NCBI GenBank assembly: GCA_045543555.1
Contig: JAZQMQ010000020.1
Coordinates: 2,911-66,910, forward strand
Source of the DNA: Eubacteriales bacterium
GTDB taxonomy: Bacteria > Bacillota > Clostridia > Oscillospirales > CAG-272
DNA: 64,000 nucleotides
Direction of reading: 5' to 3'
Below are positions 12,211-29,867 of the stretch, piece after piece. The notes under the pieces are model-generated. The model worked only from the letters and a program-made list of their open reading frames with translations. It was not told where the DNA came from and made no database searches. How positions within the stretch are numbered: the first letter of the stretch is position 1; each line of letters begins with the position of its first letter. The position numbers were made by a program, and so were the translations under genes.

Positions 12211-12564
12211 TTATTTGCCTTCGCTGATCTCTCTTGCAAGCTGTACGATTTCATAAGCATACTTTTTCTTGCCGTTCTCAAGCATTTTCTTGTAAATTGG
12301 ATAGTTTACGCCGCATCCAATCATGCCGATAATGCCAACGATAATACCGATCACCATACCGGCGATACCGCTACCGATAATCTGCATACCAAGGCACATT
12401 CCCGTGCCGAATACAAGTGCGGAAATAATTCCCCAAGTATAGGTGAAGATAGTTGCAGGCAGCTTTGCCTTTCGGTCGAGCTTGCGAAGTGCTACGATTT
12501 TGGAGCTGTCCTTGGGGGCATACTCCTTTGCGATGGATTCTGCGTAGATTTTGTCTGTGTTCAT
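12211..12564 (-). CDS. small membrane protein
   Basis: I prefer the ATG at 12564 (MNTDKIYAES...) because GGAG lies 8 nt upstream. Two Gly-rich hydrophobic helices. Confidence 0.6.
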   Translation of the reverse strand: MNTDKIYAESIAKEYAPKDSSKIVALRKLDRKAKLPATIFTYTWGIISALVFGTGMCLGMQIIGSGIAGMVIGIIVGIIGMIGCGVNYPIYKKMLENGKKKYAYEIVQLAREISEGK

Positions 12565-12754
12565 TTTGTTTCTCCGTTTCATTTTTTTGTTGTAAATTTA
12601 TTTTAATAACAAAGAAGAAGAAACAGAACAACACGATTTTCATAAAATGTTGATTTTAGAAAAAACTGTCGTCAAATTCTTATTTATCGTTCGGATTTAT
12701 CATAGCAAAAAAACTTTATGTACAGTGTTAATCACACACCCTATTGTAGCACAA

Positions 12755-12790
12755 AAACCGCAGAAAATCAATCTGCGGTTTCTGTTTTTT
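12755..12790. terminator. terminator after the aminotransferase gene (bidirectional hairpin)
   Basis: AAACCGCAGA-7 nt-TCTGCGGTTT with T-runs in both orientations. Confidence 0.75.
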
Positions 12791-12859
12791 CTGTCGGTAT
12801 AAAACTGTCCTTTAGGATACAGCCCTATCGTTTGCTCTTTTTTATTTACTATTTTGTTA

Positions 12860-14146: not shown

Positions 14147-14171
14147 TGTTTTCTCCTTATTTGCAGAGTCG

Positions 14172-14816
14172 TTAGTCCTCGTTTTGCTCACCGAGCATCT
14201 GGTTTAGGTGCTTAGACAAAAGCGCAAGAGAACACGCCATATTTTCATTTTGAACGAGGACTCCTTCGGGCACAGTAATGTGCGCGGGAGCAAAATTCCA
14301 TATTGCCTTAATGCCTGCTTCCACAAGCATATCGCATACCGCTTGAGCGGCGTGAGCAGGAGTTGTTATTATACCTATCTTCACGTTATTCTTTAAGCAG
14401 TAATTTGCGATATCGTCTGTGGAAAGTATCTCCTTGCCGTCCACACGGCACCTAACAAGCGCAGGGTTCATATCAAATCCCGCAACTATATTAAAGCCGT
14501 ATTCAGCGAAGCCACGATAAGACATAAGTGCTCTTCCAAGATTACCTGCACCCACGAGAATTGCGGGATTAACTGAATTATATCCAAGAAATTCCTTCAA
14601 TTCGCTTATTAAGGTCGCAACGTTATAACCGACCTTGGGTTTCCCGCCTGAACTGACAGCGGATAGGTCTTTTCGGACTTGAACGTCGTTTAAACCGAGC
14701 TTTTTCGCTATTTCGGTGGAGGATATGTTACCATCAGCATCAAGCGTCTTAAGAAAATTAAGATAATGAGGCAGGCGTTGCAGTGTATTAAGCGATACCT
14801 GTTGGCTTGATTCCAT
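14172..14816 (-). CDS. rex: redox-sensing transcriptional repressor Rex
   Basis: Start at ATG 14816 (MESSQQVSLNTLQRLPHYLNFL). The track start at 14840 is a TTG. Winged-helix N-terminus plus Rossmann GAGNLGRAL. Confidence 0.9.
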   Translation of the reverse strand: MESSQQVSLNTLQRLPHYLNFLKTLDADGNISSTEIAKKLGLNDVQVRKDLSAVSSGGKPKVGYNVATLISELKEFLGYNSVNPAILVGAGNLGRALMSYRGFAEYGFNIVAGFDMNPALVRCRVDGKEILSTDDIANYCLKNNVKIGIITTPAHAAQAVCDMLVEAGIKAIWNFAPAHITVPEGVLVQNENMACSLALLSKHLNQMLGEQNED

Positions 14817-14868
14817 TATTATTCTCCGTTCAATATGCAAGATTGCATTTATAATCCTGCATTTTCAT

Positions 14869-14897
14869 ATTATATACTAAAGATAACAATTTGTCAA
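14869..14897 (-). promoter_or_regulatory. sigma-A promoter of rex
   Basis: Minus strand: TTGACA (14897-14892), 17 nt, TATAAT (14874-14869). Confidence 0.6.
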
Positions 14898-14924
14898 TGG
14901 GGGCGCAATAAATTTCGCCCCCAT
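14897..14924 (-). terminator. GC-rich hairpin after the transporter gene (weak terminator in the relevant orientation)
   Basis: ATGGGGGCG-10 nt-CGCCCCCAT. The T-run is on the plus side only, so read-through into rex is plausible. Confidence 0.45.
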
Positions 14925-14936
14925 TTTTATATTATG

Positions 14937-16202
14937 TCAGAAAAGAATTATGATGAACTGCGTAACAAGTACAACGGCAACCAATGCTATCGGATAGGTA
15001 GCCGCGTAAGCCGCAGCAACGTCCTCTGTACCCGAAACACCGATAAGTGTACCAAGCGCAGGAGTACTCGTCATACCGCCTGTAAGCGATCCGAGGTTGT
15101 TAAGCAGGGAGAGCTTGAGAACGTATTTGGAAAACAAGAAGCCGACGATCATAGGAATGATAGTCATTATAATTCCGTAAACGAAGTACATCGGGTCAAA
15201 GTTTGCAATAAACTCAGCGCCACCAGGAATTCCCGCGCCAACGAGGAAGAACACAAGACCAAGCTCGCGGAAGAGCTTGAGTGTGGAATCCTTAGGCATA
15301 ATGCTTACCTTACCGATTCTGGTAATATGTCCGAGAATAAGGCTTACAAGCAGACATCCGCCTGTGGTGGTAAGCGAGAAGCAGGTACCGTCAAGACCCT
15401 TTGCGGAAAGGGGTATTTTGATCTGTCCAATGAACGTACCGAGTATTGCAGCAAGAGAAAATACAGCAATTCCCATGTGGTCAAGCTCAAAGAGCTTGCC
15501 TGCAAAGGTCTTCTTTTTGCCTTCCTCTTCCTTAACAACAAGCTTTGCTCTTTCAGCAGCCATATCAGCCTTAAGAACCTTAGGCATGAGCTGAACGAAA
15601 AGCACTACGCCGATAACGCCGAAAATGTAAGCAATTCCGTGTCCGACAGACACAAGTGACTGATATTCGGGAGCAACTGTTGCCTTTGCCGCGGAGAAAG
15701 CGGGAGTTGATGTGAGTGCTCCCGAAAGGAGACCTACGATCATTGCAACGAAGCCGTCCTGAGTTTTAATGGAGGAGCCGTATCCCATAACCTCGCCAAG
15801 GTAGATGCATCCAACTGCCGCAAGTCCGCCTGCAAGGATAACGATCGCACCGAGAAGAACGTAGGACTTGAAGTTACGCTTGAAATTTCCAAAGAATTTA
15901 GGCCCTGCGATAAAGCCTACCGAGGTTACAAAGAGGATAAGTCCGAGGCTTTCGATAATAGAAAGTCCTGCTTCAAAATTATATGGAGTTTTTGAAGCGA
16001 TAAAGTTAAGCCCGGTAACCTCGTTCATCTCAAAGCAGAGAGCTCCTGCCAAAAGTGCTACAACAAATACACCCGCATCGCCGAGGGAAATTCCCTTGAC
16101 AGTGATTCTTCCAAGTGCATAGCCTGCGAGAAGCACTGCAAACACAACCGAAAGCAGTGTTGAAATATTAGAAAGCGTTATAACGCCGCCGAATAATTCC
16201 AT
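14937..16202 (-). CDS. AAE-family (YidE/YbjL/AspT/SucE-type) transporter, short form without TrkA-C domains
   Basis: 421 aa. Internally duplicated halves with LSGALTSTPAFSAAK and LTGGMTSTPALGTLI. The N-terminus LLAGYALGRITVKGISLGDAG is typical of the family. Confidence 0.8.
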   Translation of the reverse strand: MELFGGVITLSNISTLLSVVFAVLLAGYALGRITVKGISLGDAGVFVVALLAGALCFEMNEVTGLNFIASKTPYNFEAGLSIIESLGLILFVTSVGFIAGPKFFGNFKRNFKSYVLLGAIVILAGGLAAVGCIYLGEVMGYGSSIKTQDGFVAMIVGLLSGALTSTPAFSAAKATVAPEYQSLVSVGHGIAYIFGVIGVVLFVQLMPKVLKADMAAERAKLVVKEEEGKKKTFAGKLFELDHMGIAVFSLAAILGTFIGQIKIPLSAKGLDGTCFSLTTTGGCLLVSLILGHITRIGKVSIMPKDSTLKLFRELGLVFFLVGAGIPGGAEFIANFDPMYFVYGIIMTIIPMIVGFLFSKYVLKLSLLNNLGSLTGGMTSTPALGTLIGVSGTEDVAAAYAATYPIALVAVVLVTQFIIILF

Positions 16203-16205
16203 TTT

Positions 16206-17819
16206 TTACACCTTCCTTGCATAGTCAGGAAGAAGTCTGGGGGATACCTCGTCGGTAACGATGCCCGCTTCTGCCATTTCCTTCTTAAAGCTGTTAACGT
16301 GAGAAAGGGTGAGCTTTTCAGGAGTTGCAGTCTCTGCCGCAACCTTTGCCGCATTTACGCCCGCGTTACGTCCGAATACGATGATGTCGAGGAGGGAGTT
16401 ACCCATAAGTCTGTTCTCACCGTGAATTCCTCCGACTGCCTCACCTGCAACGAAGAGGTTAGGCACCTCGGACATTCCGTTCTCGCTTATCTTGATACCG
16501 CCGTTCTGGTAGTGAAGTGTGGGGTAGATAAGAATGGGCTGCTTTCTCATATCAATGCCGTACTTGAGATACATACGCATCATTGCGGGGATTCTCTTCT
16601 CAATCGTTCCCTCGCCGTGAAGCATCTCGATCATGGGAGAGTCGAGCCATATTCCCTGTCCGCCGTTGAAGGTGTCAACGCCCTTACCCTTTCTGCACTC
16701 GCGAATAACACCAGATGCGCAAACGTCACGGGTCTCAAGGGAGTACATGAAGGGCTCACCGTCACAGTTTACGAGCTGTGCTCCGATGGAACGAACCTTC
16801 TCGGTTACGAGTGCGCCGAATATCTGCGAGGGATATGCTGCACCCGTGGGGTGATACTGAAGTGTGTAAGCATAAAGGAGAGGTGCGCCCGCACGATAAG
16901 CCATAACAAGACCGTCAGCGGTTGCTCCGTAGTGGTTGGAGGTGGGGAAGCCCTGATAGTGCATTCTGCCTGCGCCGCCCGTTGCGATGATAACGGTCTT
17001 TGCTCTTGCTATAAGGATCTCCTTGGTCTCCATATTCATAAGGACAGCACCTGCGGCATTGCCCTTTTCGTCCTTGATTATCTCGATAGCCGAGGTAAAA
17101 TCAACGACGTTGATGCCTCTGTTCTGAACCTCGTCACGAAGAACTCTCATGATCTCGGCACCGGAGTAGTCCTTACAAGCGTGCATTCTCTTTCTGGAAG
17201 TGCCGCCGCCGTGGGTTGTTACCATAGTACCGTCGGCTTCCTTGTCGAACATAACGCCGAGATCGTTGAGCCACTTAATACAAACGGGGGCATCGTTTAC
17301 GAGCTTATAAACAAGCTCGGGAACGTTCTTGAAGTGTCCGCCGCCCATAACGTCGAGATAGTGCTGTGCGGGGGAGTCATTGGGCTTATCAGCCGCCTGA
17401 ATTCCACCCTCTGCCATCATGGTATTAGCATCGCCGTGGCGAAGCTTGGTAACTATCATAACGTTTGCGCCGCTTTCCTGTGCCATAATTGCTGCAGCAG
17501 ATCCTGCTCCGCCGCCGCCTATAATCAGCACATCAACATCGTAATCGATCTTGTTAAGATCTATCTTATCGGGATCGATTCTGGGATTAGCCTGAAGGAT
17601 TCCTGCAAGCTCAAGGGGCACCTTTTCACCCTTGTTAGGACCTATTTTGAGAGTGTCGAACTGATCGACGATATGGTCGGGGTGGTTTTCAAGAAGGACC
17701 TGATCCTTTTCCTCAGCAGTCATTCTGCGAGGATGAATACCGTTAAGTGCGTTCTTGACACGCTCTTCACGTGTAGCTTCGACCTTTTTGATCGATTCAA
17801 GCATTTCATTCGTATACAT
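16206..17819 (-). CDS. FrdA/SdhA-family flavoprotein (soluble fumarate-reductase-like)
   Basis: 537 aa. FAD motif VLIIGGGGAGSAAA. Substrate-site motifs LQYHPTG, TEKVRS, ETRD, PTLHYQNGG and GIHGENRLMGNSLLD. ANTMMAEGG replaces SHTVAAEGG, so there is no covalent-FAD His. Confidence 0.8.
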   Translation of the reverse strand: MYTNEMLESIKKVEATREERVKNALNGIHPRRMTAEEKDQVLLENHPDHIVDQFDTLKIGPNKGEKVPLELAGILQANPRIDPDKIDLNKIDYDVDVLIIGGGGAGSAAAIMAQESGANVMIVTKLRHGDANTMMAEGGIQAADKPNDSPAQHYLDVMGGGHFKNVPELVYKLVNDAPVCIKWLNDLGVMFDKEADGTMVTTHGGGTSRKRMHACKDYSGAEIMRVLRDEVQNRGINVVDFTSAIEIIKDEKGNAAGAVLMNMETKEILIARAKTVIIATGGAGRMHYQGFPTSNHYGATADGLVMAYRAGAPLLYAYTLQYHPTGAAYPSQIFGALVTEKVRSIGAQLVNCDGEPFMYSLETRDVCASGVIRECRKGKGVDTFNGGQGIWLDSPMIEMLHGEGTIEKRIPAMMRMYLKYGIDMRKQPILIYPTLHYQNGGIKISENGMSEVPNLFVAGEAVGGIHGENRLMGNSLLDIIVFGRNAGVNAAKVAAETATPEKLTLSHVNSFKKEMAEAGIVTDEVSPRLLPDYARKV

Positions 17820-17833
17820 CTTACCCGTCCTCC

Positions 17834-18508
17834 TTATTTCTCAAAATCTCTGTTGTTATACATTTCCTTAAGCTCCTCAGCGGTCTTGCTCATAATATCG
17901 CGAAGAGCCTCCTCGGTTGCACCGTTTTCGATTTCAGCAACTCTCTCGAGGAGGTGCTGAGTTTCGGGAGCGAGATACTTACCGGTGAGACGGCGGGACA
18001 GAAGTCCTACCTGACCGTGAGTGATACCCGCAGGGCATCTGGAGGAGCAAACACCGCACATTACGCAGTCAAAGGACTCCTCTGCGCACTTTTCGTACTC
18101 GCCTCTCTGAGCGTAAGCAATGTACTGCATAACGTTAAGACCCTGAGTACAAGCCTTGGTGCAGGCGTTACAGCCTACGCAAGCGTAAATTTCGGGGTAA
18201 AGCTGCATCATTATCTGTTCGGTGGGCTTTACCTTCTCGATATCGTAGGGCTGCTTAATAAGGGGGAAGAAAGGAAGGGTCGCAATGTACATATTGTCTT
18301 CAACCTTTGTCTGACATGCAAGACATGTCTTCAGCTCTCGTTCACCCTTTATACGATAAATGGTCGCACAAGCACCGCAGAAGCCACAACGGCATCCTAC
18401 TCCGCGTACGAGCTGATAGCCCGCATACTCCATTGCTCCCATAATTGTAAGATTAGACGGCACCTCGTACTTTTTGCCGTAAAGATATATGTTTACCATA
18501 TTTTCCAT
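17834..18508 (-). CDS. FrdB/SdhB-like iron-sulfur protein
   Basis: 224 aa. N-terminal CRCGFCGAC...C (2Fe-2S-like), then CVGCNACTKAC and CVMCGVCSSRCP cluster motifs. Confidence 0.75.
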   Translation of the reverse strand: MENMVNIYLYGKKYEVPSNLTIMGAMEYAGYQLVRGVGCRCGFCGACATIYRIKGERELKTCLACQTKVEDNMYIATLPFFPLIKQPYDIEKVKPTEQIMMQLYPEIYACVGCNACTKACTQGLNVMQYIAYAQRGEYEKCAEESFDCVMCGVCSSRCPAGITHGQVGLLSRRLTGKYLAPETQHLLERVAEIENGATEEALRDIMSKTAEELKEMYNNRDFEK

Positions 18509-18522
18509 AGTATGTTACCTCA

Positions 18523-19347
18523 TCAATATTCATCAGGCAATGCGCCAAGCTTATCGTAACGGAATACCGGTCCGTCCTTGCAGACGTATTTGCTTCCAAT
18601 GTTACAGCGTCCACATTTACCGATACCGCACTTCATACGAAGCTCCATTGTAGTGTACACCTGCTCCTCAGTAAAGCCCAGCTCCTTCAGAGCCGCAAGC
18701 GTAAATTTGATCATAATGGGAGGACCGCAAACAAGTACGGTCTTGCTTATATCGGGCTCGAGCTCCTTTACGTAGTTGGGAACGAAGCCGACGTGTCCGT
18801 CCCAACCCTCCTGCTCACGGTCGATGGTAAGATGGACGTTAACGCCCGCCTCGGTCATCCACTCCTCAATTATTTCCTTGTAATCAACAAGGTCATCCTT
18901 GGAGCGTGAGCCGTAAACGATGTCTATGCTTCCGTAATTTTCTCTGTAGTGACGGCAGTAATTTATAACCGAGCGAAGAGGCGCAAGTCCGATTCCGCCC
19001 GCAATAAAGAGCAGGTCCTTGCCCTTGAGCTCCGTTTCAACGGGGAAGGAATTTCCGTAAGGGCCTCTGACGGTTACGTACTGACCTACCTCCATAGCGT
19101 GAAGCCACTCGGTAAGACATCCGCACTTCTTGATGCTGAATTCCATATACTCGGTATTCGTGGGAGATGAGGTTATGGAAAACATAGCCTCGCCCACACC
19201 GGGAATGGAAAGCATCGCACACTGACCGGGCATATGGTCAAAGGGCTTGACTCCGTCGGGAGTTACTACCCTGAAGGTCTTTACGTCGGGGGTATCGATA
19301 CGTATATCGGTTACTACTCCGACCACTGGGATAAGTGTTTCGTTCAT
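18523..19347 (-). CDS. flxA: FNR-like NAD(P)H:flavin oxidoreductase with C-terminal 2Fe-2S (FlxA / HydG / AsrB type)
   Basis: 274 aa. GGIGLAPL nucleotide-binding motif and CGIGKCGRC cluster motif. Confidence 0.75.
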   Translation of the reverse strand: MNETLIPVVGVVTDIRIDTPDVKTFRVVTPDGVKPFDHMPGQCAMLSIPGVGEAMFSITSSPTNTEYMEFSIKKCGCLTEWLHAMEVGQYVTVRGPYGNSFPVETELKGKDLLFIAGGIGLAPLRSVINYCRHYRENYGSIDIVYGSRSKDDLVDYKEIIEEWMTEAGVNVHLTIDREQEGWDGHVGFVPNYVKELEPDISKTVLVCGPPIMIKFTLAALKELGFTEEQVYTTMELRMKCGIGKCGRCNIGSKYVCKDGPVFRYDKLGALPDEY

Positions 19348-20372
19348 TACTTTTCCTCCTTAAAGGCCTTCATTACCTTGACGATATTCATGGAGATGGG
19401 GCACTTGCTCAGACATCTGCCGCAACCCACACAGCTGAAGATACCGTCGTTGTTTGCGGGATAGTAAACGAGCTTGTGCATAAATCTCTGCCTGAATCTT
19501 TCAAGCTGAGATACACGGGGATTTCCGTGCGCCATTTTGGTGAAATCGGAATACATGCAGGAATCCCAGCATCTGAATCTCTTGATGCCGCTTCCCGTGT
19601 CGAAATCCTTTATGTCATAGCACTGGCAGGTGGGACAAACGAATGTACAGGTACCGCAACCGATACAAGACTCCGAAAGACCTGCCCATTTGTCGGAATC
19701 AAAGTACTCCATCATCTTTTCGGGAGTAAAGCCGTCGGTGGTAAGGGACGCAAGCGGAAGCTCAGCCTTTGCGCTGTATATCCCGGTCTTGATGTCCCAT
19801 ACGGGCTCGTCATCGGATTCGGTAAGAGAGGTCCCGATGCTCTCGATGAGAGCCTTTCCCTTCTCTGTTACCGCCTCAAGATAAACCTCGTCTCCGTTTA
19901 CCCAAGCGGAAACGTCGCCCTCAGGCTCTGCACAGTTGATGCCGAAGGTCTGACAGAAGCAGGTCTCCCGCATCATATCGGGGTTACAAGCGACTGCAAT
20001 GGTGGTGCAATGCTCACGTCTGCTCTTGTAATAGGTATCGACGGGCTCGGACAAAAATACTCTGTCGAGAATTTCGAAGGACTTGACGTCGCAGGCACGG
20101 AGTCCGAATACCGTAAAATCCTCGGTCTCGCTTCTTACGTCGATAATTTCGATCTTCTTGCCCTCACGCTTGAAATCAACAAGATTTTCGGTCTGGGGGA
20201 AGAAGAAATCCTTAGGAGTTCTGACCTTGTCGCATTTTTCGTTTGCGTCAGCCTTCCACTCCTTGAAGGGCTTATGGGTGTCGCTTACGTCGGCACCGTC
20301 GGGATCGGGCACATAGAGACGCTGAAGCGAAGCGATAGCGGAGAAAAGCTCGTTTAAAGTTGTTTTAAGCAT
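19347..20372 (-). CDS. flxB: 4Fe-4S dicluster protein (FlxB / HydB / AsrA type)
   Basis: Start taken at ATG 20372 (MLKTTLNELF), preceded by GAGGAGG. CIGCGTCTFVCPTCQC and CVGCGRCLSKCP motifs. TAATG overlap with flxA. Confidence 0.7.
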   Translation of the reverse strand: MLKTTLNELFSAIASLQRLYVPDPDGADVSDTHKPFKEWKADANEKCDKVRTPKDFFFPQTENLVDFKREGKKIEIIDVRSETEDFTVFGLRACDVKSFEILDRVFLSEPVDTYYKSRREHCTTIAVACNPDMMRETCFCQTFGINCAEPEGDVSAWVNGDEVYLEAVTEKGKALIESIGTSLTESDDEPVWDIKTGIYSAKAELPLASLTTDGFTPEKMMEYFDSDKWAGLSESCIGCGTCTFVCPTCQCYDIKDFDTGSGIKRFRCWDSCMYSDFTKMAHGNPRVSQLERFRQRFMHKLVYYPANNDGIFSCVGCGRCLSKCPISMNIVKVMKAFKEEK

Positions 20373-21354
20373 TTTCCTTTCCTCCTCTTTCGTGAACGAT
20401 ACTCGGCTCGGCGTCGCCGTAGGTGTAGTTGGTAAGGGGAGAACGGCTCTCCATATCCTCACCCGCCTGATACTCGCCGTAAAGCTCGTTTATATCCTTG
20501 ATAAACTTACGGTTGAGCAGGTGAAGGGGAATGTGCTGAGGACATACTCTGCTGCACTCACCGCAGTCGGTACAGCGTCCCGCTACGTGGAACGCTCTTA
20601 TGATATGGAACATATTTTCCTCAAAGGAGGTAGCCGCCGCCTTCTGTGCCACACCCGATGCATCGTTGTCGAATACACATTTTTCGCAGGTGCAGGCGGG
20701 ACAAGCGTTACGGCAGGCGTTACATCTGATGCAACGGGAAAGCTCACCTCTCCAGAATTCGTATCTTTCCTCGGGAGTCATATTTTCGAGGGCGGCAACC
20801 TGATCAAAGCGGTCACAGTCGTCCACCTTATCTCCCTCCTCGCAGAGAAGCTCGTCGCATATGGGATGCTTCTTGCTCTTGCAGGATGCACATTTTTCAA
20901 GAAGTGCCTCGTAAATGGGAAGCTCCCTTGCAGTATCACCAAGACCGTAAACGGTAAGCACACCGTCACGCTCGGTAACGTTTTTAATGGTCGCAACGCC
21001 GCTCTTGGCTCTGACGGCATCAATATCCGCCTTGCCGAAGCACTCGATACCGATAGCGTATACGTTTTCTCTTATAATTCTGTGCTCCTTGAGAAGCTGT
21101 GCGAAGCTGTAGCTGTCGCAGGGCTTGAGGAATACCAGCACCTTTCCTTCTTTTCTGCTCTCTTTTACGAGATACTTGGAAAGGTTTGCTCCGCAGAAAG
21201 CGGAATAGACGAAATCCGCCTCAATTTCCTCCTTGGTCTCAAACACCGCGGGGGTAATATCGTAAACAAAATCGCCCTTTTTCCAACCGAGCACACGGCT
21301 TACCGCACCGCTTGAAAGAAGCTCGATCGCCTTATTTTTCATCATTTCTTGCAT
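20365..21354 (-). CDS. flxC: iron-sulfur protein (FlxC-type)
   Basis: 329 aa. CIRCNACRNACPACTC and CTDCGECSRVCP motifs. Overlaps both neighbours. Confidence 0.65.
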   Translation of the reverse strand: MQEMMKNKAIELLSSGAVSRVLGWKKGDFVYDITPAVFETKEEIEADFVYSAFCGANLSKYLVKESRKEGKVLVFLKPCDSYSFAQLLKEHRIIRENVYAIGIECFGKADIDAVRAKSGVATIKNVTERDGVLTVYGLGDTARELPIYEALLEKCASCKSKKHPICDELLCEEGDKVDDCDRFDQVAALENMTPEERYEFWRGELSRCIRCNACRNACPACTCEKCVFDNDASGVAQKAAATSFEENMFHIIRAFHVAGRCTDCGECSRVCPQHIPLHLLNRKFIKDINELYGEYQAGEDMESRSPLTNYTYGDAEPSIVHERGGKENA

Positions 21355-21779
21355 CGGAGGTCCTCCAATCTGCGATTCTCACCGAGGTCGGTGACTGTCT
21401 TTACGAAGCTGTTCATGGTTTCCGCAAACTTCTGACCCTCAGCGGCAGATACCCATTCAACTCTCGTTCTGTCTCTTTCGATACCGAGGTAGTCGAGCAT
21501 CGAGAACAGAAGGGTCATACGGCGCCTTGCATAGTAGTTACCCGTAGTATAGTGACAGTCGCCGGGGTGACAACCGCAAATTATAACGCCGTCCGCACCT
21601 CTCTGGAAGGCACGGAGGATGAACATGGGATTTACTCTGCATGAACAGGGCACTCTGATTATCTTAACGTCGGCAGGATACTGAAGACGGTTGGTTCCCG
21701 CAAGGTCAGCGCCCGCGTAAGAGCACCAGTTACAGCAGAAGGCTACTATTTTGGGCTTGAATTCATTATTTACTTGCAT
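21342..21779 (-). CDS. flxD: MvhD-family (methyl-viologen-reducing hydrogenase delta subunit-like) protein, FlxD
   Basis: 145 aa. KIVAFCCNWCSY...VPCSCRV...GVIICGCHPGDCHY is the MvhD signature. Confidence 0.85.
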   Translation of the reverse strand: MQVNNEFKPKIVAFCCNWCSYAGADLAGTNRLQYPADVKIIRVPCSCRVNPMFILRAFQRGADGVIICGCHPGDCHYTTGNYYARRRMTLLFSMLDYLGIERDRTRVEWVSAAEGQKFAETMNSFVKTVTDLGENRRLEDLRCKK

Positions 21780-23761
21780 ATTGCGTCAACCTCCGCCATT
21801 ATCTGTGCATTTGTGAAGCCCTTAAGGTCCATAGCGCCCGAAGGACAAGCAACGGTACAAGCACCGCAGCCCTGACATACCGCTTCGTTAACAGAAGCAA
21901 CTCTGCGAATGAGGGTGGTACGGTTGGGACCTCTGAATTCCTTATCGGAATAGGTGATTGCGCCGTAAGGACATACCTTTTCACAGGAGGAGCATCCGTT
22001 ACAGAGCATCTCGTCGGAATGAGCAACACAGGGGTTGCAGGTAAGCTTATTCTTATTAAGAAGACCGATAACCTTTGCCGCACAAGCGGAGGCCTGAGAA
22101 ACGGTCTCGGGAATATCCTTGGGGCCCTGACATACGCCCGAGAGGAAGATGCCCGCCGTAGGGCTCTCAACGGGACGGAGCTTGGGGTGTGCCTCGGTGA
22201 AGAAATCGTTTGTATCCATACTTGCGGTAAGCTTGGTAGCAAGAGGTCTTGCGGAGCTATCGGGCTCGATAGCGGTTGCGAGAACAACCATATCCGCGCT
22301 TATCTTCAGCTGCTTGCCCTCGATAAGATCGGATGCACGTACCGTGAGAGTACCGTCGGGCTCCGGAAGAACCTTTCCGACCATTCCTTTAACGTAATGA
22401 ACACCGTATTCCTCAACCGCACGGCGATAGAACTCGTCAAAATTCTTACCGGGCGTACGAACGTCGATATAGAACACGTACACCTCGGTGTCGGGATATT
22501 TTTCCCTTATGAGCATAGCGTGCTTTGCGGTGTACATACAGCATATCTTGGAGCAATAGCTCTTGCCCTTGTCGTCGGAGCATCTTGAGCCCACGCACTG
22601 TACGAACACGATGGTGTGCGGGTGGGTCTTATCGGAGGGACGGAGAAGCGTTCCGCCGTTAGGGCCTGCGGCGTTCATAAGACGCTCAAGCTCAAGGGAG
22701 GTAACTACGTCCTTGCTCTGATTGTATGCAAACTCATCGTACTTGTCGAGCTTGATGGGATTGAAGCCGGTTGCAACGACGATGGCACCGTACTGCTCGT
22801 TTATATAGCTGTCTGTCTGCTTGTAATCGATAGCGCCAACCGTACAAACCTTTGCGCAAAGGCCGCACTTACCGCTTTTCAGCATAGTGCAATAATCTGC
22901 ATCGATGGTTGCAACCTTCGGTACTGCCTGAGCGAAGGGTATATATACTGCGCGACGGTTATCAAGACCGAGATTGAAGGCATTCGGAACCTTCTTCTGA
23001 GGACATTTTTCTGTACAAAGACCGCAGCCCGTACACTTATTTTCGTCAACGTATCTCGCCTTGCGCTTGATGGTAACGTTGAAATTACCGACGAAGCCCT
23101 TTACGTCCTCGACCTCGGAATAGGAAAGAATCCTTATCTTTTCATGTTGAGCACAATCGACCATTTTAGGCGTAAGGATACAAGCGGCACAGTCGAGGGT
23201 CGGGAATGTCTTGTCTATCTGCGCCATCTTTCCTCCGATGGTCGCCTCCTTCTCGACTATGTCGACCTCAAAGCCCGCATCGGCAATATCAAGTGCGGTC
23301 TGGATTCCCGCAATACCGCCTCCGATAACGAGGGCACGCTTGACAACGGGGCTCTCGCCTGCGGTGAGGGGTGCGTTAAGATGTACCTTTGCTATAGCTG
23401 CACGTCCGAGGATAATTGCCTTTTCGGTCGCCTCCTCGACGTTCTTATGTATCCACGATACCTGCTCTCTGATGTTTGCTATCTCGACCATATAGGGATT
23501 AAGTCCCGCCGCCGTCGCAGTTTTGCGGAAGGTGGCCTCGTGCATACGGGGTGAGCAGGAGCATACAACCACTCCCGTAAGAGCGTTATCCTTTATTGCG
23601 TCCTTAATGAGATTCTGTCCTGCCTCAGAGCACATATACTGATATTCGGTGGAGATAACTACACCGGGCTCGTGCGAAAGAGCCTCCGCTACCGCCTTAA
23701 CGTCCACGGTCGCAGCAATATTCGTACCGCAATGGCAGACAAATACTCCAATTCTCTGCAT
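21770..23761 (-). CDS. hdrA: heterodisulfide reductase subunit A-like flavoprotein
   Basis: 663 aa. N-terminus MQRIGVFVCHCGTNIA, FAD motif ALVIGGGIAGIQTALDIA, several 4Fe-4S motifs (CTGCGLCTEKCP, CNGCSSCEKVCP, CQGCGACTVACP). Confidence 0.9.
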   Translation of the reverse strand: MQRIGVFVCHCGTNIAATVDVKAVAEALSHEPGVVISTEYQYMCSEAGQNLIKDAIKDNALTGVVVCSCSPRMHEATFRKTATAAGLNPYMVEIANIREQVSWIHKNVEEATEKAIILGRAAIAKVHLNAPLTAGESPVVKRALVIGGGIAGIQTALDIADAGFEVDIVEKEATIGGKMAQIDKTFPTLDCAACILTPKMVDCAQHEKIRILSYSEVEDVKGFVGNFNVTIKRKARYVDENKCTGCGLCTEKCPQKKVPNAFNLGLDNRRAVYIPFAQAVPKVATIDADYCTMLKSGKCGLCAKVCTVGAIDYKQTDSYINEQYGAIVVATGFNPIKLDKYDEFAYNQSKDVVTSLELERLMNAAGPNGGTLLRPSDKTHPHTIVFVQCVGSRCSDDKGKSYCSKICCMYTAKHAMLIREKYPDTEVYVFYIDVRTPGKNFDEFYRRAVEEYGVHYVKGMVGKVLPEPDGTLTVRASDLIEGKQLKISADMVVLATAIEPDSSARPLATKLTASMDTNDFFTEAHPKLRPVESPTAGIFLSGVCQGPKDIPETVSQASACAAKVIGLLNKNKLTCNPCVAHSDEMLCNGCSSCEKVCPYGAITYSDKEFRGPNRTTLIRRVASVNEAVCQGCGACTVACPSGAMDLKGFTNAQIMAEVDAICK

Positions 23762-23781
23762 TTTTCTTGTCCTTTCGGGAA

Positions 23782-24159
23782 TTATTTTGTATATTTACGG
23801 AAAGCCGTTACGATAGCCTGCTGAGGCATATCGGGATCGAGAAGCTCGGGGATATCGTCAGGGGTAAGACGGTTACATCCCTGAGGACGGATGGCCATAA
23901 GCCTTACCGCCTCGATAAGCTTTGCGGGCTCGACACCTCTGGGGCATCGCTCTACACAAGCAAAGCAGGTGAGACATTTGTATACCGATTCCGAGTTCAG
24001 CAGGGCGTCAATATCGCCGTTTTCGACCATATATACGAACTGATGGGGATGATACTCCATCTCGCCGTAGGAGGGGCAGGTGCCGGAGCACTTACCGCAT
24101 TTCATACATTTTCTCGGGTTTACACCGCTTACTCGGATTATTTCTTCCTTCTTGTTCAT
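23782..24159 (-). CDS. hdrC: heterodisulfide reductase subunit C-like 4Fe-4S protein
   Basis: 125 aa. CMKCGKCSGTCP and CLTCFACVERCP. Confidence 0.8.
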   Translation of the reverse strand: MNKKEEIIRVSGVNPRKCMKCGKCSGTCPSYGEMEYHPHQFVYMVENGDIDALLNSESVYKCLTCFACVERCPRGVEPAKLIEAVRLMAIRPQGCNRLTPDDIPELLDPDMPQQAIVTAFRKYTK

Positions 24160-24950
24160 TTGGCGACATCCTCCTTAACTCCGAGAGCCTCCGCAAGAAG
24201 CTCGGTGAAGTACTTTATCTCCGCTCCGCCATCTCTGCACTGCTCGAGATTGTAAAGGCAGAGGGGACAAGCGGTGATAACAAGGTCTGCACCGAAGCCA
24301 TTTGCGCTGTTAAGCACGTCGGCGCTCTTTGAGAGTGCGGATGCCTTATCCTCTAGGGCAACGTAGCCACCGCAGCACTCGTTACGGTAGGGGTAGATAA
24401 CGGGCTCACCGCCGATGGCACGGATAAGGTCCTCAATTATCTTGGGGTCCTCAACATCGTCCATCGCCATGACCTTTCCGGGACGGAGAAGGAGACAGCC
24501 GTAGTATGCGGCGATCTTCTTGCCCGTAAAGGGGTTTACCACCTTTTCCTTAATCTTATCAAAGCCCACTCTGTCACGGAGAAGCTCAAGGAAATGAATA
24601 ACCTGAGTCTTACCCTCGTACTCACCCTCGGGCTTTTCATACATACGGACCTTCAGCTTGAAGTTTTCATCGTTCAAAAGATCGTTTCTCACTCTCTTCA
24701 GCACGTTGTGACAGGCGGAGCAAAGGGTCACAAGGTCTTCACCTCTCTTTTCCGCCGCATAAAGTGCTCTCACGGAGGAAAGCTTGTTTGCTATCTCGTT
24801 ACTTGCGGCATTATACGTACCTCCGCAGCACTGCCAGGTGTCAAGCTCGTTCAAGCCTACACCGAGGACCTCTGCTACGGCTCTTGCATATCTGTCAAGC
24901 TCCTTAGCCTTGGTCTTTAAGGTACAGCCGGGATAATAACTGTAAGTCAT
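24156..24950 (-). CDS. hdrB: heterodisulfide reductase subunit B-like protein (two CCG domains)
   Basis: 264 aa. YYPGC...WQCCGG...CSAC and YYGC...NECCGG...CPLC. Confidence 0.85.
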   Translation of the reverse strand: MTYSYYPGCTLKTKAKELDRYARAVAEVLGVGLNELDTWQCCGGTYNAASNEIANKLSSVRALYAAEKRGEDLVTLCSACHNVLKRVRNDLLNDENFKLKVRMYEKPEGEYEGKTQVIHFLELLRDRVGFDKIKEKVVNPFTGKKIAAYYGCLLLRPGKVMAMDDVEDPKIIEDLIRAIGGEPVIYPYRNECCGGYVALEDKASALSKSADVLNSANGFGADLVITACPLCLYNLEQCRDGGAEIKYFTELLAEALGVKEDVAK

Positions 24951-24968
24951 AACTTCATCCTTTCAGGT

Positions 24969-26345
24969 TTATACCATCTGCTCGGGGTGGAAGACCTCGT
25001 CGAAGCGCTCCTCGGTCAAAAATCCGAGAGCAACGCAGGCCTCTTTAAGCGAAATATTGTCCTTATACGCCTTCTTTGCGGTCTTTGCCGCATTTTCGTA
25101 GCCGATGTAGGGGTTAAGGGCGGTCACGAGCATAAGGGAATTCTTGAGATTGTGATCCATCTTCTCACGGTTTGCCTTAATGCCCACCGCACAGTTATTG
25201 TTGAAGGAAACTATGCTGTCCGCAAGGAGACGTACCGACTGAAGGAAATTATAAATACATACGGGCATGAACACGTTAAGCTCAAAGTTGCCCTGAGAAG
25301 CCGCCATGCCGACCGCAACGTCGTTACCCATTACCTGAACCGCAACCATCGTAACCGCCTCGCACTGAGTGGGGTTTACCTTACCGGGCATAATGGAGGA
25401 GCCGGGCTCGTTTTCGGGAATGAATATCTCACCGAGGCCGTCACGGGGACCCGAAGCAAGCCATCTTACGTCGTTTGCGATCTTCATCATATCGCAGGCA
25501 AGAGCCTTAAGTGCTCCGTGTGCAAAAACAAGCTCGTCCTTGGAGGTGAGAGCGTGAAATTTATTGCCTGCGGTAACGAAAGCCTTACCGGTTATCTCGG
25601 ATACCGCCTCTGCGACCGCAGTATCGAAGCCCTTGGGAGCGTTAAGACCCGTACCGACGGCAGTGCCGCCGAGAGCAAGCTCGTGAAGGGGCTTGAGGGA
25701 CATAGCTATAAGCTCTCTGTCTCTTTCAAGCGAGCTTCTCCAACCGCTGATCTCCTGAGAGAACTTTATGGGGGTTGCATCCTGAAGATGAGTACGTCCG
25801 CACTTTACGGCGTCCTCGTTTTCGCTTTCAAGACGCTTGAAGGTGTCGATAAGCAGGTCAACTGCGGGAAGAAGCTTATCCTCTATTCCGATCACCGCCG
25901 CAATGTGCATTGCGGTGGGGAAGGTATCGTTTGATGACTGAGACATATTGATGTCGTCGTTGGGGTGGAGAAGCTTTTTGCCCGCAAGCTCGTTGCCTCT
26001 GTTGGCGATGACCTCGTTTGCGTTCATGTTGGACTGAGTGCCGCTTCCCGTCTGCCATACGACGAGGGGGAAATGATCGTTTAACTGACCCGAAATGACC
26101 TCGTCACATGCTGAGCAGATAGCACGAAGCTTTTCCTCGGTCATCTTCTCGGGGCGAAGGGTGGAGTTTGCCATTGCCGCCGCCTTTTTGAGAACACCGA
26201 AGGCGTGAGTGATCTCACGGGGCATTATCTCGTTGCCTACGCCTATGCGGAAGTTTTCTGAGCTTCTCTGTGTCTGAGCCGCCCAATATTTATCTGCGGG
26301 GACTTTTACCTCGCCCATCGAATCGTGTTCAATACGAAATTCCAT
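24969..26345 (-). CDS. fumC: class II fumarate hydratase
   Basis: 458 aa. GSSIMPGKVNPTQCEA signature. Confidence 0.95.
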   Translation of the reverse strand: MEFRIEHDSMGEVKVPADKYWAAQTQRSSENFRIGVGNEIMPREITHAFGVLKKAAAMANSTLRPEKMTEEKLRAICSACDEVISGQLNDHFPLVVWQTGSGTQSNMNANEVIANRGNELAGKKLLHPNDDINMSQSSNDTFPTAMHIAAVIGIEDKLLPAVDLLIDTFKRLESENEDAVKCGRTHLQDATPIKFSQEISGWRSSLERDRELIAMSLKPLHELALGGTAVGTGLNAPKGFDTAVAEAVSEITGKAFVTAGNKFHALTSKDELVFAHGALKALACDMMKIANDVRWLASGPRDGLGEIFIPENEPGSSIMPGKVNPTQCEAVTMVAVQVMGNDVAVGMAASQGNFELNVFMPVCIYNFLQSVRLLADSIVSFNNNCAVGIKANREKMDHNLKNSLMLVTALNPYIGYENAAKTAKKAYKDNISLKEACVALGFLTEERFDEVFHPEQMV

Positions 26346-26357
26346 CTTGCCTCTCCT

Positions 26358-27302
26358 TCATATGTTGAGCTGATTTATTACTTCTTTGAGCTTGTCTGCG
26401 CTGTAACGGAGCTTCGCGATCTCCTCTTCCGTCAAGGGAGAGATGATCTTTCCGTTTACTCCGCCCTTTCCAACAATGGAAAGAATGCTGAGACAAACGT
26501 CGCTGATGCCGTATTCACCGTTCATCATAGTGGACACCGAAAGTGCAGTATCGATGCCTCTGAAGATGCTGGAGCAAATATTGTTAACCGTGAGAGCTAT
26601 AGCGTAGTAGGTAGCTCCCTTTGCGGTGATAATTGTTGAACCGGACTTTCTTACGTACTCCTCGATCTCATCGCGGTTAAAGCCGCAACCGTCGATCTGA
26701 AGGCCCTTGGACTGAGCGTAAGCGTCGATAGGTGTGCCCGATATGGTTGCGATAGACCACGGCACGAAGGAAGTATCACCGTGCTCACCGAAAACGTTTG
26801 CATGAACGTTCTGCATACTAATGCTGAAGTTTTCAGCAAGACGAGAACGAAGACGTGCTGTATCAAGGAGCGCACCACTTCCGATTATCTGCTTTTCGGG
26901 AAGACCCGAGCACTTACAGAAAACATACGTAAGTATATCAACGGGGTTACTTACGACGATATACACCGCGTTGGGAGCAACACTCGTTATTTTCGGAATG
27001 ATGCTCTTGGTGATGTTGACGTTTGTCTGTGCAAGGTCAAGCCGGGACTGTCCCGGACGTCTTGCGATACCGGAGGTAAGCACCACGATATCAGAATCTC
27101 TTGCATCCTCGTAGTCACCTGCGTGAATGTTGATGGGCGAAATAAACGGCGCGCCCTGTCTGATATCCATTGCTTCACCAAACGCCTTCTGCTCGTTGAT
27201 ATCGATAAGAACCACCTCTGCAGCATTACCGCTGACCGCAAGAGTAAACGCGATAGTCGCACCTACAGATCCGGCTCCTATGATAGACACTTTTCTTCCC
27301 AT
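26358..27302 (-). CDS. mdh: LDH-family 2-hydroxyacid dehydrogenase with Arg at the Q102 position (predicted malate dehydrogenase)
   Basis: 314 aa. VSIIGAGSVGAT. The specificity loop GIARRPGQSRLDL aligns as RRPGQSR against LDH QKPGETR and MDH RKPGMSR. Catalytic GEHGDT. Confidence 0.8.
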   Translation of the reverse strand: MGRKVSIIGAGSVGATIAFTLAVSGNAAEVVLIDINEQKAFGEAMDIRQGAPFISPINIHAGDYEDARDSDIVVLTSGIARRPGQSRLDLAQTNVNITKSIIPKITSVAPNAVYIVVSNPVDILTYVFCKCSGLPEKQIIGSGALLDTARLRSRLAENFSISMQNVHANVFGEHGDTSFVPWSIATISGTPIDAYAQSKGLQIDGCGFNRDEIEEYVRKSGSTIITAKGATYYAIALTVNNICSSIFRGIDTALSVSTMMNGEYGISDVCLSILSIVGKGGVNGKIISPLTEEEIAKLRYSADKLKEVINQLNI

Positions 27303-27365
27303 ATTTTTCTTATCCTTTCTTATCGGGGAAGGGGTTCCCCATACTACTCCATTTTACTGTCATAG

Positions 27366-27394
27366 ATTATATCACCTATATATTGTTTTTGCAA
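27366..27394 (-). promoter_or_regulatory. sigma-A promoter of the mdh-fumC-hdr-flx-frd operon
   Basis: Minus strand: TTGCAA (27394-27389), 17 nt, TGaTATAAT (-10 at 27371-27366). Confidence 0.6.
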
Positions 27395-27403
27395 ATGCAA
27401 AAA
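27386..27403. promoter_or_regulatory. 18-nt perfect palindrome overlapping the -35 (operator candidate)
   Basis: TTTTTGCA-AA-TGCAAAAA. Confidence 0.45.
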
Positions 27404-27409: not shown

Positions 27410-27429
27410 ATCGATATATTTTTATCGAT
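27410..27429. promoter_or_regulatory. inverted repeat at about -45 to -65 (LysR-type site candidate)
   Basis: ATCGATA-TATTTT-TATCGAT, perfect 7-nt arms. Fits the T-N11-A architecture. Confidence 0.4.
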
Positions 27430-27581
27430 TGGTGCAATGGTATTTTTTATATGGGGTAATATTAATAAATCAACAAATTATCGGTCTAAAAATAACGACT
27501 TTTAGTGTTTTTTTCGTTTGCGCAGTCAAATTTGTTGTTATATTGCATTATTCACATTCCTAGTTGGAATTAATCAATGTA

Positions 27582-27620
27582 AAAATGCAGATATCACCAC
27601 AAGGGTTTTATCTGCATTTT
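27582..27620 (-). terminator. terminator after the LysR gene
   Basis: AAAATGCAGAT...ATCTGCATTTT 11-nt arms. On the minus strand the tail is ATTTTTAC. Confidence 0.6.
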
Positions 27621-27658
27621 AACCAATTTTATCAGCTTACACTTATACAATATTACCA

Positions 27659-28594
27659 TTAAACAACGCCGAAGGCAACCTTGTTCTTAGTCTCATACAG
27701 CTTATCAATAAAGCGTCTGTCGAGCTCACTGAGCCTTGTTCCCTCCCTGCAAACCATAACGTCCTTATACTTATGTGCCGGAGCATTGCAGGATCTCTGT
27801 ATAAGCCCGTATCGTCTGAGTATGCTTTCGGGAGTCGGAGAAACCCACATAAAAGATGAAGGCATCATAGAAAGCAGCAGGAATGCGTCGGTGCCCTTAT
27901 AGAGATTTATAACCTTTTTGTCCGAGAGTGCAAGGGATACGTTTTCGCTCTGCACAACGTTTATATACGGCACGTTACAGTCGCCGTGAGTGACCTCAAC
28001 ATAGGAAGCAAAATCCGAAAGACTGAGCTTTTCCTTGCTTGCAAGCGGATGCTCCTTTGACATGAGCGCGAGGGATTCGAATTCCCATATCGGTTCGCAC
28101 TTAAGCCCCTTATCTCTGCAAAAATCGGCAAAATAGGTTTCATACTGCACCTGATAACGAATAACTCCGATATTGAATATTCCGTCGGAAACCATATTTA
28201 CCCCGTCAATTGAGGTTGTTTCTCCGAGATTCACATCGATTGGCTTATCGTTGTCAAGAGAGGATATAAATTCCATAGCCGCAACCGAAGCATAGCTTCC
28301 CCTTGGTACACATACGTTAAAGAACTGCATATCCGGATCATTTTCGCGACATATAGACTGCATTTGCTCTATTTGTGAGAGGATATTCTTTGCATAACGC
28401 AGAAATTCTTGTCCCTTATCTGTAGGAACAACTCCGCGCGAGGTTCTCTTGAATATTACTATACCAAGCGTGTCCTCAAGCTCCTTAATTGATTTGCTCA
28501 AGTTTGGCTGACCCATGAAAAGGTTCTCCGCAGCCTGTGTTATAGACCCTGTTTTTTCAACCTCGAGAGCATATTTGAAATGCTGTGTGTTCAT
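27659..28594 (-). CDS. LysR-family transcriptional regulator
   Basis: Start at ATG 28594 (MNTQHFKYALEVEKTGSITQAAENLFMGQPNLSKSIKELE) with GGAG 6 nt upstream. The track start is a TTG. Confidence 0.85.
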   Translation of the reverse strand: MNTQHFKYALEVEKTGSITQAAENLFMGQPNLSKSIKELEDTLGIVIFKRTSRGVVPTDKGQEFLRYAKNILSQIEQMQSICRENDPDMQFFNVCVPRGSYASVAAMEFISSLDNDKPIDVNLGETTSIDGVNMVSDGIFNIGVIRYQVQYETYFADFCRDKGLKCEPIWEFESLALMSKEHPLASKEKLSLSDFASYVEVTHGDCNVPYINVVQSENVSLALSDKKVINLYKGTDAFLLLSMMPSSFMWVSPTPESILRRYGLIQRSCNAPAHKYKDVMVCREGTRLSELDRRFIDKLYETKNKVAFGVV

Positions 28595-28617
28595 TTTGTT
28601 CTCCAATCGTTTTCCGT

Positions 28618-29853: not shown

Positions 29854-29867
29854 ATTCGCTCATTCTC

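Follow-up and report, generated by a model that had tools for sequence, protein, structure and literature searches.

The closest described counterpart of the locus reported here is the 'succinate operon' of Pseudoclostridium thermosuccinogenes (CDQ83_RS03315-RS03365). It encodes fumarate hydratase, an Flx-Hdr module (seven genes), a fumarate reductase (two genes) and a small hypothetical protein (PMC7282089). Our locus is a 12-gene operon in a 64,000-nucleotide stretch of DNA, hereafter the window, from an Eubacteriales bacterium (assembly GCA_045543555.1, contig JAZQMQ010000020.1). We think it reasonably likely that this operon encodes an NADH (reduced nicotinamide adenine dinucleotide)-dependent, ferredoxin-reducing (electron-bifurcating) fumarate reductase, FlxABCD-HdrABC-FrdAB. 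The original prediction, made from the sequence alone, had read the operon in this way and, as a whole, is partly supported by our analysis. Its implied novelty was overstated. To judge by its citation in PMC7282089, a 2019 preprint by Koendjbiharie and van Kranenburg had proposed the same operon and mechanism for P. thermosuccinogenes. The same fumarate reductase/Flx-Hdr proposal was used in the citing study itself (PMC7282089; 2020).

Succinate is a major cross-feeding metabolite in the gut and rumen, a precursor of propionate and a host signal. In Bacteroidota and Proteobacteria it is made by a fumarate reductase that is bound to the membrane and depends on quinones. For Firmicutes poor in quinones, the mode of fumarate reduction, and whether it yields energy, are still treated as open. 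New with respect to the published single-organism proposal are the breadth of distribution of the operon, its strict synteny, the invariance of key residues, an enrichment of Rex operators and an occasional linkage to hydrogenase.

The operon and its described counterparts

The operon consists of 12 intact, co-directional open reading frames (ORFs), tightly packed between positions 27302 and 14937 of the minus strand. Profile searches agreed, gene for gene, with the order and identities that had been read from the sequence. The genes are given below in the direction of transcription, together with the signals that flank them.

27366-27394, minus strand: sigma-A-type promoter; TTGCAA-17 nt-TATAAT with a TG-extended -10 element, 10/12 matches
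26358-27302, minus strand: mdh, NAD-dependent malate dehydrogenase resembling lactate dehydrogenase (LDH), 314 residues; Ldh_1_N/C, Arg at the specificity position
24969-26345, minus strand: fumC, class II fumarate hydratase, 458 residues; Lyase_1 and FumaraseC_C, TIGR00979 at 719 bits (cut-off 665)
24156-24950, minus strand: hdrB, two CCG domains, 264 residues; PF02754 twice, 114 bits to solved HdrB
23782-24159, minus strand: hdrC, two [4Fe-4S] clusters, 125 residues; Fer4_8/17, CoB_CoM_SS_C model, two CxxCxxCxxxC motifs
21770-23761, minus strand: hdrA, flavoprotein with flavin adenine dinucleotide (FAD) and multiple [4Fe-4S] clusters, 663 residues; HdrA2 model at 798 bits
21342-21779, minus strand: flxD/mvhD, [2Fe-2S] electron-transfer subunit, 145 residues; PF02662 (FlpD/MvhD) at 190 bits
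20365-21354, minus strand: flxC, Fe-S subunit, 329 residues with 19 Cys; Fer4_8/17, two CxxCxxCxxxC motifs
19347-20372, minus strand: flxB, Fe-S subunit, 341 residues with 19 Cys; Fer4_22, ShyB (sulfhydrogenase beta) and AsrA models
18523-19347, minus strand: flxA, FNR-like NAD(P)H:flavin subunit with a C-terminal [2Fe-2S] cluster, 274 residues; FAD_binding_6, NAD_binding_1, DHODB_Fe-S_bind
17834-18508, minus strand: frdB-like iron-sulfur subunit, 224 residues; Fer2_4 and two four-Cys [4Fe-4S] motifs
16206-17819, minus strand: frdA-like flavoprotein, presumed catalytic fumarate reductase subunit, 537 residues; FAD_binding_2 at 226 bits, from residue 96
14937-16202, minus strand: AAE-family (AspT/YidE/YbjL/SucE-type) transporter, 421 residues; PF06826 (Asp-Al_Ex) twice, about 10 hydrophobic segments
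14897-14924, minus strand: 3' hairpin after the transporter stop codon, 9-bp GC-rich stem without a U-tract, -19.5 kcal/mol

All 12 genes begin with ATG and have a Shine-Dalgarno-like leader; the flxB start at 20372, for example, is preceded by the ribosome-binding site GAGGAGG. Successive intergenic distances, from mdh to the transporter gene, are 12, 18, -4, 20, -10, -13, -8, -1, 14, 14 and 3 nt. These gaps reproduce exactly the junctions that had been quoted, namely the TAATG at 19345-19349 and four overlaps. The sigma-A promoter placed at 27366-27394 was likewise recovered as a promoter-like site. Within the operon, terminator-like matches were at the level of chance (16, compared with 15.6 in shuffled sequence), in keeping with the claim that there is no internal terminator, and internal promoter-like matches also occurred only at chance level. 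Gene packing and the single promoter suggest that the 12 genes are co-transcribed. The hairpin at 14924-14897 is likely to be the 3' end, or a stabiliser, of the operon transcript.

The P. thermosuccinogenes operon has the same order: fumC, hdrB, hdrC, a five-gene block from hdrA to flxA, and two fumarate reductase genes. The corresponding spans, P. thermosuccinogenes first, are 1366/1377, 784/795, 325/378, 5348/5239, 676/675 and 1603/1614 nt, so that the likeness is one of order and sizes. The window operon adds mdh at its head, and rex and an aspartate aminotransferase gene follow it. At the tail of the operon, the window has the 421-residue AAE transporter where P. thermosuccinogenes has the hypothetical gene of 250 nt. 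The hosts also differ; the window derives from an uncultured mesophilic gut lineage of Clostridia whereas P. thermosuccinogenes is a thermophile. That organism has both Rnf and Ech, and added H2 abolishes its production of succinate (PMC7282089). The genes of its succinate operon are expressed at 2,400-12,700 fragments per kilobase per million and change jointly, with log2 fold changes of -1.4 to -2.0 (PMC7282089). If the homology holds for function, such high co-expression supports reading the window operon as a succinate route.

Several other systems share part of this design. One concerns the Flx-Hdr module in isolation from fumarate reduction: Desulfovibrio vulgaris FlxABCD-HdrABC was reportedly studied by Ramos and co-workers in 2015, in the context of ethanol and sulfate metabolism, with a DsrC disulfide as the proposed acceptor. 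The D. vulgaris module and that of the window have the same seven subunit types, the same domain content and the same presumed donor, NADH. Conversely, the gene order is flxABCD-hdrABC in Desulfovibrio and hdrBCA-flxDCBA in the window, and the Desulfovibrio genes lack the adjacent frdAB, fumC and mdh that the window has.

The TfrAB enzyme of Methanothermobacter resembles the window system in being soluble, in carrying one [2Fe-2S] and two [4Fe-4S] clusters, and in using CCG chemistry to feed a fumarate-reducing flavin. However, TfrB is a single polypeptide, whereas in the window its modules are distributed among three proteins, the FrdB-like subunit, HdrC and HdrB. A C-terminal domain is present in TfrA and an N-terminal extension is not; the reverse is true of the FrdA-like protein. 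The electron donors of TfrAB are coenzyme M (CoM-SH) and coenzyme B (CoB-SH), and it has no HdrA or Flx module, both of which are present in the window.

In Moorella thermoacetica, MetFV-HdrABC-MvhD provides a case in which HdrABC-MvhD serves a non-disulfide reductase; NADH is the donor, and bifurcation has been proposed. As in the window, HdrABC-MvhD is thus joined to a reductase for a high-potential acceptor that is not a disulfide. The differences are that the terminal reductase is MetFV rather than FrdAB, that FlxABC is missing and that the second acceptor is not yet known. The methanogen complexes MvhADG-HdrABC and Fdh-HdrABC (5odc, 7bkb, 8rvu) contain a structurally defined bifurcation core, with HdrA, HdrB and HdrC homologous over their full length to the window proteins. 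They differ in using H2 or formate as donor and CoM-S-S-CoB as acceptor, and in having no fumarate reductase.

A comparable gene linkage has been described in tubeworm symbionts and Thioflavicoccus, where tfrAB and korABCD are interspersed with flxABCD-hdrABC and a joint complex was suggested (PMC6315080). We liken this to the window by its description. The organisms are Gammaproteobacteria with an autotrophic reverse tricarboxylic acid (TCA) cycle that includes 2-oxoglutarate:ferredoxin oxidoreductase. Lastly, FrdABCD and the type E Sdh/Mfr enzymes (SdhE) share their chemistry and catalytic residues with the window proteins, and type E also has a CCG partner. Compared with FrdABCD and SdhABCD, the window system has no anchor or quinol site, has a non-covalent FAD (Asn132) and gives no PF02910 match. 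Its FrdB-like subunit has two four-Cys motifs, whereas the classical enzyme has a 4Fe-4S and a 3Fe-4S cluster.

Subunits, catalytic residues and conservation

The FrdA-like protein is made up of a 93-residue N-terminal extension followed by FAD and capping domains; there is no C-terminal Frd/Sdh domain (no PF02910 match). The extension (residues 1-93) had no match in Pfam, even at E = 10. It is a real part of the protein because relatives align from residue 1, and it may help the protein to dock onto the Hdr/Flx module. The best match in NCBIfam was TfrA (339 bits), followed by sdhA/frdA (275 bits) and nadB (268 bits), all below the respective cut-offs. For TfrA, the score compares with an equivalog cut-off of 718 bits (NF004900); the match covers model positions 6-414 of 546, and the score falls short because nothing in the protein matches the last third of the model, at its C-terminal end. 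A structure prediction for the protein had a mean pLDDT (predicted local distance difference test score) of 53, with homologues 82-97% identical as its source, and the model was not used.

We aligned the FrdA-like protein with SdhA and FrdA of E. coli and with NadB of Salmonella. The histidine that binds FAD covalently (8-alpha-histidyl) is replaced by Asn132. Non-covalent FAD accompanies fumarate reduction rather than succinate oxidation. In the same alignments, the protein keeps His323, Thr339, Glu340, Arg343, the proton-donor Arg364, His436 and Arg470. His203 aligns with the substrate glutamate of NadB, which we take to be Glu121 (E121), the specificity residue that contacts the substrate amino group. 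Asn132, His203, the two-His/two-Arg site, the Thr-Glu pair and the proton-donor Arg are invariant in 109-113 relatives. These invariant residues argue for a dicarboxylate (fumarate) site operating in the reductase direction, and against an aspartate oxidase. Hence, the protein does not group with L-aspartate oxidases, in line with its original designation; it matches TfrA better than nadB (339 against 268 bits, with a TIGR00551 cut-off of 453), and His203 is invariant.

The FrdB-like subunit has a [2Fe-2S] motif, C39-x4-C44-x2-C47-x14-C62, and four-Cys motifs at C110-120 and C148-158. The cluster cysteines are kept in about 110 relatives. The protein matches the TfrB N-terminus and dhsB models weakly, and its set of clusters is that reported for methanogen TfrB, not the 2Fe/4Fe/3Fe set of classical FrdB. 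The methanogen TfrB model was in fact matched piecewise, by the FrdB-like protein (model positions 18-149), HdrC (132-218) and HdrB (395-468). One characterised enzyme therefore fuses exactly these modules. The FrdAB pair has neither an electron-input module of its own nor an anchor.

The FlxABCD-HdrABC set is complete, all seven subunit types being intact and having the expected domain content. HdrA aligns end to end with the solved bifurcating HdrA of methanogens (5odc/8rvu; 680 bits) and is the presumed site of bifurcation. In HdrB, Cys 9, 41, 42, 77 and 80, and Cys 152, 192, 193, 228 and 231, are invariant in 107-111 relatives; the protein scores equally to HdrB and to SdhE, the CCG 'anchor' of type E fumarate reductases. 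FlxB matches the sulfhydrogenase beta subunit of P. furiosus (9nez_B) with 125 bits. The motifs quoted for FlxA were confirmed, with GGIGLAPL at residue 117 and CGIGKCGRC at residue 240. As had been predicted, a Kyte-Doolittle scan detected no transmembrane-grade segment in any of the eleven enzyme subunits, compared with about 10 in the transporter. The ORF list and profile searches also revealed no gene for an anchor subunit in the operon.

The remaining genes fit a route from oxaloacetate via malate and fumarate to succinate and transport, and this part of the original prediction is backed by profile matches together with our reading of motifs and alignments. The first gene requires comment. 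NCBIfam L-lactate dehydrogenase models match Mdh above their cut-offs (347 bits with a cut-off of 339, and 330 with a cut-off of 304) while malate dehydrogenase models score below theirs; hence, automatic annotation would probably name it an LDH. Its loop, GIARRPGQSR, has Arg at the classical specificity position 102 ('Q102'). The Q102R change turns LDH into malate dehydrogenase, and Arg is a signature of the latter. On this motif, we regard the first gene as a predicted malate dehydrogenase of the LDH-like group. The transporter matches TIGR01625 (YidE-YbjL duplication; 118 bits, cut-off 72) and has no equivalent of the central cytoplasmic region of family members of about 560 residues. A role in succinate export or dicarboxylate exchange is probable, the family assignment being our guide to its substrate.

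Relatives of the flavoprotein were sought in one genome per GTDB species. This yielded at least 584 loci, of which the best 80 were kept for analysis. At least several hundred species of the gut or rumen carry a relative of the operon. Among the best 80, most are from gut and rumen Clostridia (Acutalibacteraceae, Oscillospiraceae, Christensenellales including the cultured Guopingia tenuis, and Lachnospiraceae), with a few bins from Treponema/Spirochaetaceae. The closest relative of the window in this set is a genome bin from roe-deer rectum (L012). FrdB precedes FrdA in 71/71 of these genomic loci and FlxA precedes FrdB in 67/67. The entire core, hdrB-hdrC-hdrA-flxD-flxC-flxB-flxA-frdB-frdA, is colinear wherever there is enough flanking sequence (47/47). 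Conservation of the frdAB-like genes next to flx-hdr, on which the original prediction depended, is thus borne out by the neighbourhood survey. The genes for substrate supply and transport are somewhat more variable: fumC is present in 39/45 loci, mdh in 34/43 and the AAE gene, downstream, in 54/68. A second sample comprised 80 metagenomic loci centred on close FumC homologues. In 54 of 67 the sequence continues into hdrB, with the remaining genes of the block after it wherever the contig is long enough.

Clustering of flanking ORFs from the 160 loci identified only three recurrent neighbours: rex, aconitase/isocitrate dehydrogenase (about 6 loci) and [FeFe] hydrogenase (5 loci). No Rnf, ferredoxin, DsrC or phosphoenolpyruvate carboxykinase gene was found among the recurrent flank genes of these loci. 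Since genes beyond it are not conserved, the block behaves as a self-contained functional unit. The hydrogenase is monomeric, has Fe_hyd_lg_C and ferredoxin-like domains, and abuts the operon. It lies upstream of mdh in L003 (82-480), L004, L007 and L066, and at 13363-14847 in L030, where it has 494 residues; in four of the five loci the gene stops about 22 nt before mdh. This adjacency is circumstantial support for ferredoxin as an output of the operon.

Two further observations concern the relatives. In one metagenomic locus (L100, 868-5596) and about five similar ones, aconitase, isocitrate dehydrogenase and rex are directly upstream of the operon, forming a split-TCA cluster. Near-complete operons were also found in four bins labelled Treponema/Spirochaetaceae (L032, L050, L054 and L077), with a flavoprotein 70-75% identical to that of the window. 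These copies reflect either cross-phylum transfer or an error of binning.

Proposed electron transfer to fumarate and alternative readings

The operon would provide a cytoplasmic, quinone-independent branch from oxaloacetate to succinate, with the final step catalysed by a soluble, multi-subunit FlxABCD-HdrABC-FrdAB complex. Mdh and FumC would supply fumarate. NADH would be oxidised at FlxA, and its electrons would reach the flavin of HdrA via the Fe-S clusters of FlxB, FlxC and FlxD; bifurcation of the pair would take place at this flavin. The high-potential electron would travel through HdrC, the two non-cubane clusters of HdrB and the FrdB-like subunit to the non-covalent FAD of the FrdA-like subunit, and so to fumarate. 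The low-potential electron would reduce ferredoxin. The net reaction would be 2 NADH + fumarate + oxidised ferredoxin -> 2 NAD+ + succinate + reduced ferredoxin (two electrons). Rnf could then draw on the reduced ferredoxin to build an ion gradient, or an [FeFe] hydrogenase could use it to form H2. The AAE protein would move the dicarboxylate product or substrate across the membrane, and Rex would couple expression to the NADH/NAD+ ratio. Gene content, cofactor and catalytic motifs, synteny and Rex-box enrichment are observed, and co-expression is documented for the homologous operon; we infer the association of FrdAB with Hdr, the path of the electrons, the bifurcation to ferredoxin and the substrate of the transporter.

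The relevant potentials are -320 mV for NADH, +33 mV for fumarate/succinate and about -450 mV for ferredoxin. With these values, the coupled reaction is exergonic. If the complex does bifurcate, fumarate joins the short list of acceptors used by bifurcating systems, and the CCG module of Hdr is shown to serve a non-thiol reductase. Metabolic models of many gut species would have different ATP and H2 balances, and it would be explained how fermenters that have no respiratory chain conserve energy when they reduce fumarate. A demonstration of bifurcation would establish a new class of bifurcating system with wide ecological relevance. More specifically, HdrB non-cubane clusters may feed the FrdB-like protein directly, with no disulfide being reduced, in a distinct bifurcating class. 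Such an enzyme would be the main energy-conserving route to succinate in hundreds of Clostridia of the gut and rumen that have no quinones, as well as in some spirochaetes. We put this wider proposal forward tentatively, our confidence in it being a little short of even.

A number of points weigh against electron bifurcation to fumarate by this operon. Electron transfer from NADH to fumarate is already exergonic, so bifurcation is not required. Our literature searches found no enzyme assay, co-purification or structure for any Flx-Hdr-Frd member, and searches of the PDB with HdrA, FlxB and HdrB returned no structure of an Flx-Hdr or Flx-Hdr-Frd complex. HdrB has the complete cysteine set of a disulfide reductase, which leaves room for a thiol/disulfide intermediate. 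The FrdA-like protein is atypical, with an N-terminal extension that matches no family and without the C-terminal domain. We saw no gene for Rnf, hydrogenase or ferredoxin in the 64-kb window, hydrogenase adjacency is rare (5/160 loci), and the only Rex candidate in the window is a weak one, with 3 mismatches, 174 nt upstream of the operon.

The alternative that survives best involves a thiol shuttle. Thiols would be re-oxidised at the CCG site of HdrB and their electrons passed to FrdAB, giving a split bacterial thiol:fumarate reductase that cycles with Hdr. HdrB retains its ten CCG cysteines without variation, which is also the pattern of true disulfide reductases; TfrA is the nearest curated family of the flavoprotein, and TfrB unites the FrdB-like and CCG modules. 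Flx-Hdr has also been described as passing electrons to 'ferredoxin (and thiols)' (PMC7282089). However, the operon contains no DsrC-like, lipoate-binding or coenzyme-biosynthesis gene, and none recurs in the flanks of the 160 loci. The FrdB-like protein itself lacks a CCG domain, and CCG proteins can also serve simply in electron transfer or at a quinone site (SdhE, GlpC and LldE models). We regard a thiol shuttle as unlikely.

It is also rather improbable that Flx-Hdr is a mere wire from NADH to FrdAB, leaving ferredoxin unreduced, or that ferredoxin is instead a second electron donor. By the established potentials, NADH-driven fumarate reduction is strongly exergonic alone, and there is no ferredoxin gene in the operon. 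An NADH-dependent fumarate reductase was also assumed for Blautia luti, a gut acetogen that forms succinate, in a 2026 study that measured the activity only with viologen. Against this, HdrA is kept at full length and scores 680 bits to bifurcating HdrA, and a nine-subunit, Fe-S-rich machine has been retained in hundreds of species though simpler enzymes exist. Single-polypeptide soluble NADH-fumarate reductases occur elsewhere. The inhibition of succinate formation by H2 in P. thermosuccinogenes fits a ferredoxin-reducing step, and in some loci an [FeFe] hydrogenase gene adjoins the operon.

That the FrdA-like protein is an L-aspartate oxidase, or a reductase of some other unsaturated acid to which fumC and mdh are linked incidentally, can hardly be credited: the similar nadB and sdhA/frdA scores (268 and 275 bits, all below cut-offs), the downstream aspartate aminotransferase gene and the unusual domain architecture are outweighed by the best match to TfrA (339 bits), the invariant His203 in place of the NadB substrate Glu, the invariant dicarboxylate site of two His and two Arg with its proton-donor Arg, the obligatory Fe-S partner, the linkage of FumC and Mdh in most loci and the very high expression of the homologous operon in a succinate producer.

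Regulation and neighbouring genes

The genes and sites that flank the operon are as follows.

27410-27429, minus strand: dyad ATCGATA-N6-TATCGAT, candidate operator; perfect, just upstream of the -35 element and largely kept in the closest relative
27386-27403, minus strand: perfect dyad TTTTTGCA-TT-TGCAAAAA, candidate repressor site; overlaps the -35 hexamer
27581-28606, minus strand: lysR (27659-28606; HTH_1, LysR_substrate) and its own terminator (27617-27581; hairpin of -19.1 kcal/mol, then UUUUU)
14172-14897, minus strand: rex, redox-sensing repressor, ATG at 14816, directly downstream of the operon; NF003994 at 280 bits (cut-off 130)
12755-14191, minus strand: type Ic aspartate aminotransferase (12860-14191; NF053594 at 661 bits, cut-off 435) and its canonical terminator (12785-12755)

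The rex gene has its own promoter at 14897-14869, a perfect TTGACA-17-TATAAT (12/12), and a rex homologue was present in the fetched flanks of 18/160 related loci. We also searched for Rex boxes, defined as sites with up to 2 mismatches to the clostridial operator no more than 250 nt upstream of the first gene. Such boxes were found at 20/95 loci, where 0.73 were expected. Shuffled sequences gave a maximum of 3 in 300 shuffles, and hdrA coding controls of equal length gave none. Association of the operon family with Rex, which senses NADH, is thus statistically supported. Upstream of the window operon there is no Rex operator at up to 2 mismatches. Since the site there has 3, the Rex link rests on the adjacent rex gene and on the relatives. 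Neither of the promoter dyads matches the Rex consensus. The adjacent LysR-type regulator possibly binds the ATCGATA-N6-TATCGAT dyad, and may be an activator of the operon; apart from the window, only 2 loci have a lysR gene close to the operon. The lysR terminator insulates the operon from upstream transcription.

The rex-aminotransferase pair after the operon is kept only in the closest relative, L012. As annotated, the two reading frames overlap by 20 nt. The aminotransferase is a possible feeder of oxaloacetate from aspartate. The presence of both genes in the window and in L012 suggests aspartate as the source of oxaloacetate, in which case the AAE protein could exchange aspartate for succinate.

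The GC content of the operon is 50.4%, compared with 44.8% for the rest of the window; positions 16000-26000 are about 5-6 points above the average. Horizontal transfer was considered as an explanation and ruled out. The excess is no evidence of recent acquisition because dnaK (50.2%) and uvrA (53.2%) are equally GC-rich.

Rfam and tRNA scans of the window gave no matches. The rest of the window is housekeeping in character and includes the dnaK operon, uvrAB, trpS, bipA, guaB and ABC transporters. Upstream of lysR, at 28618-33284 on the minus strand, are genes for an ATP-grasp protein (carbamoyl-phosphate-synthase-like, no Pfam match), a glutamine-dependent asparagine synthase and a Mur-ligase-family protein. 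The trio is possibly a cluster for cell-wall peptide modification. At 51141-54090, also on the minus strand, two adjacent and overlapping ORFs of 511 and 487 residues each encode a protein with MutS domain V (ATPase) only.

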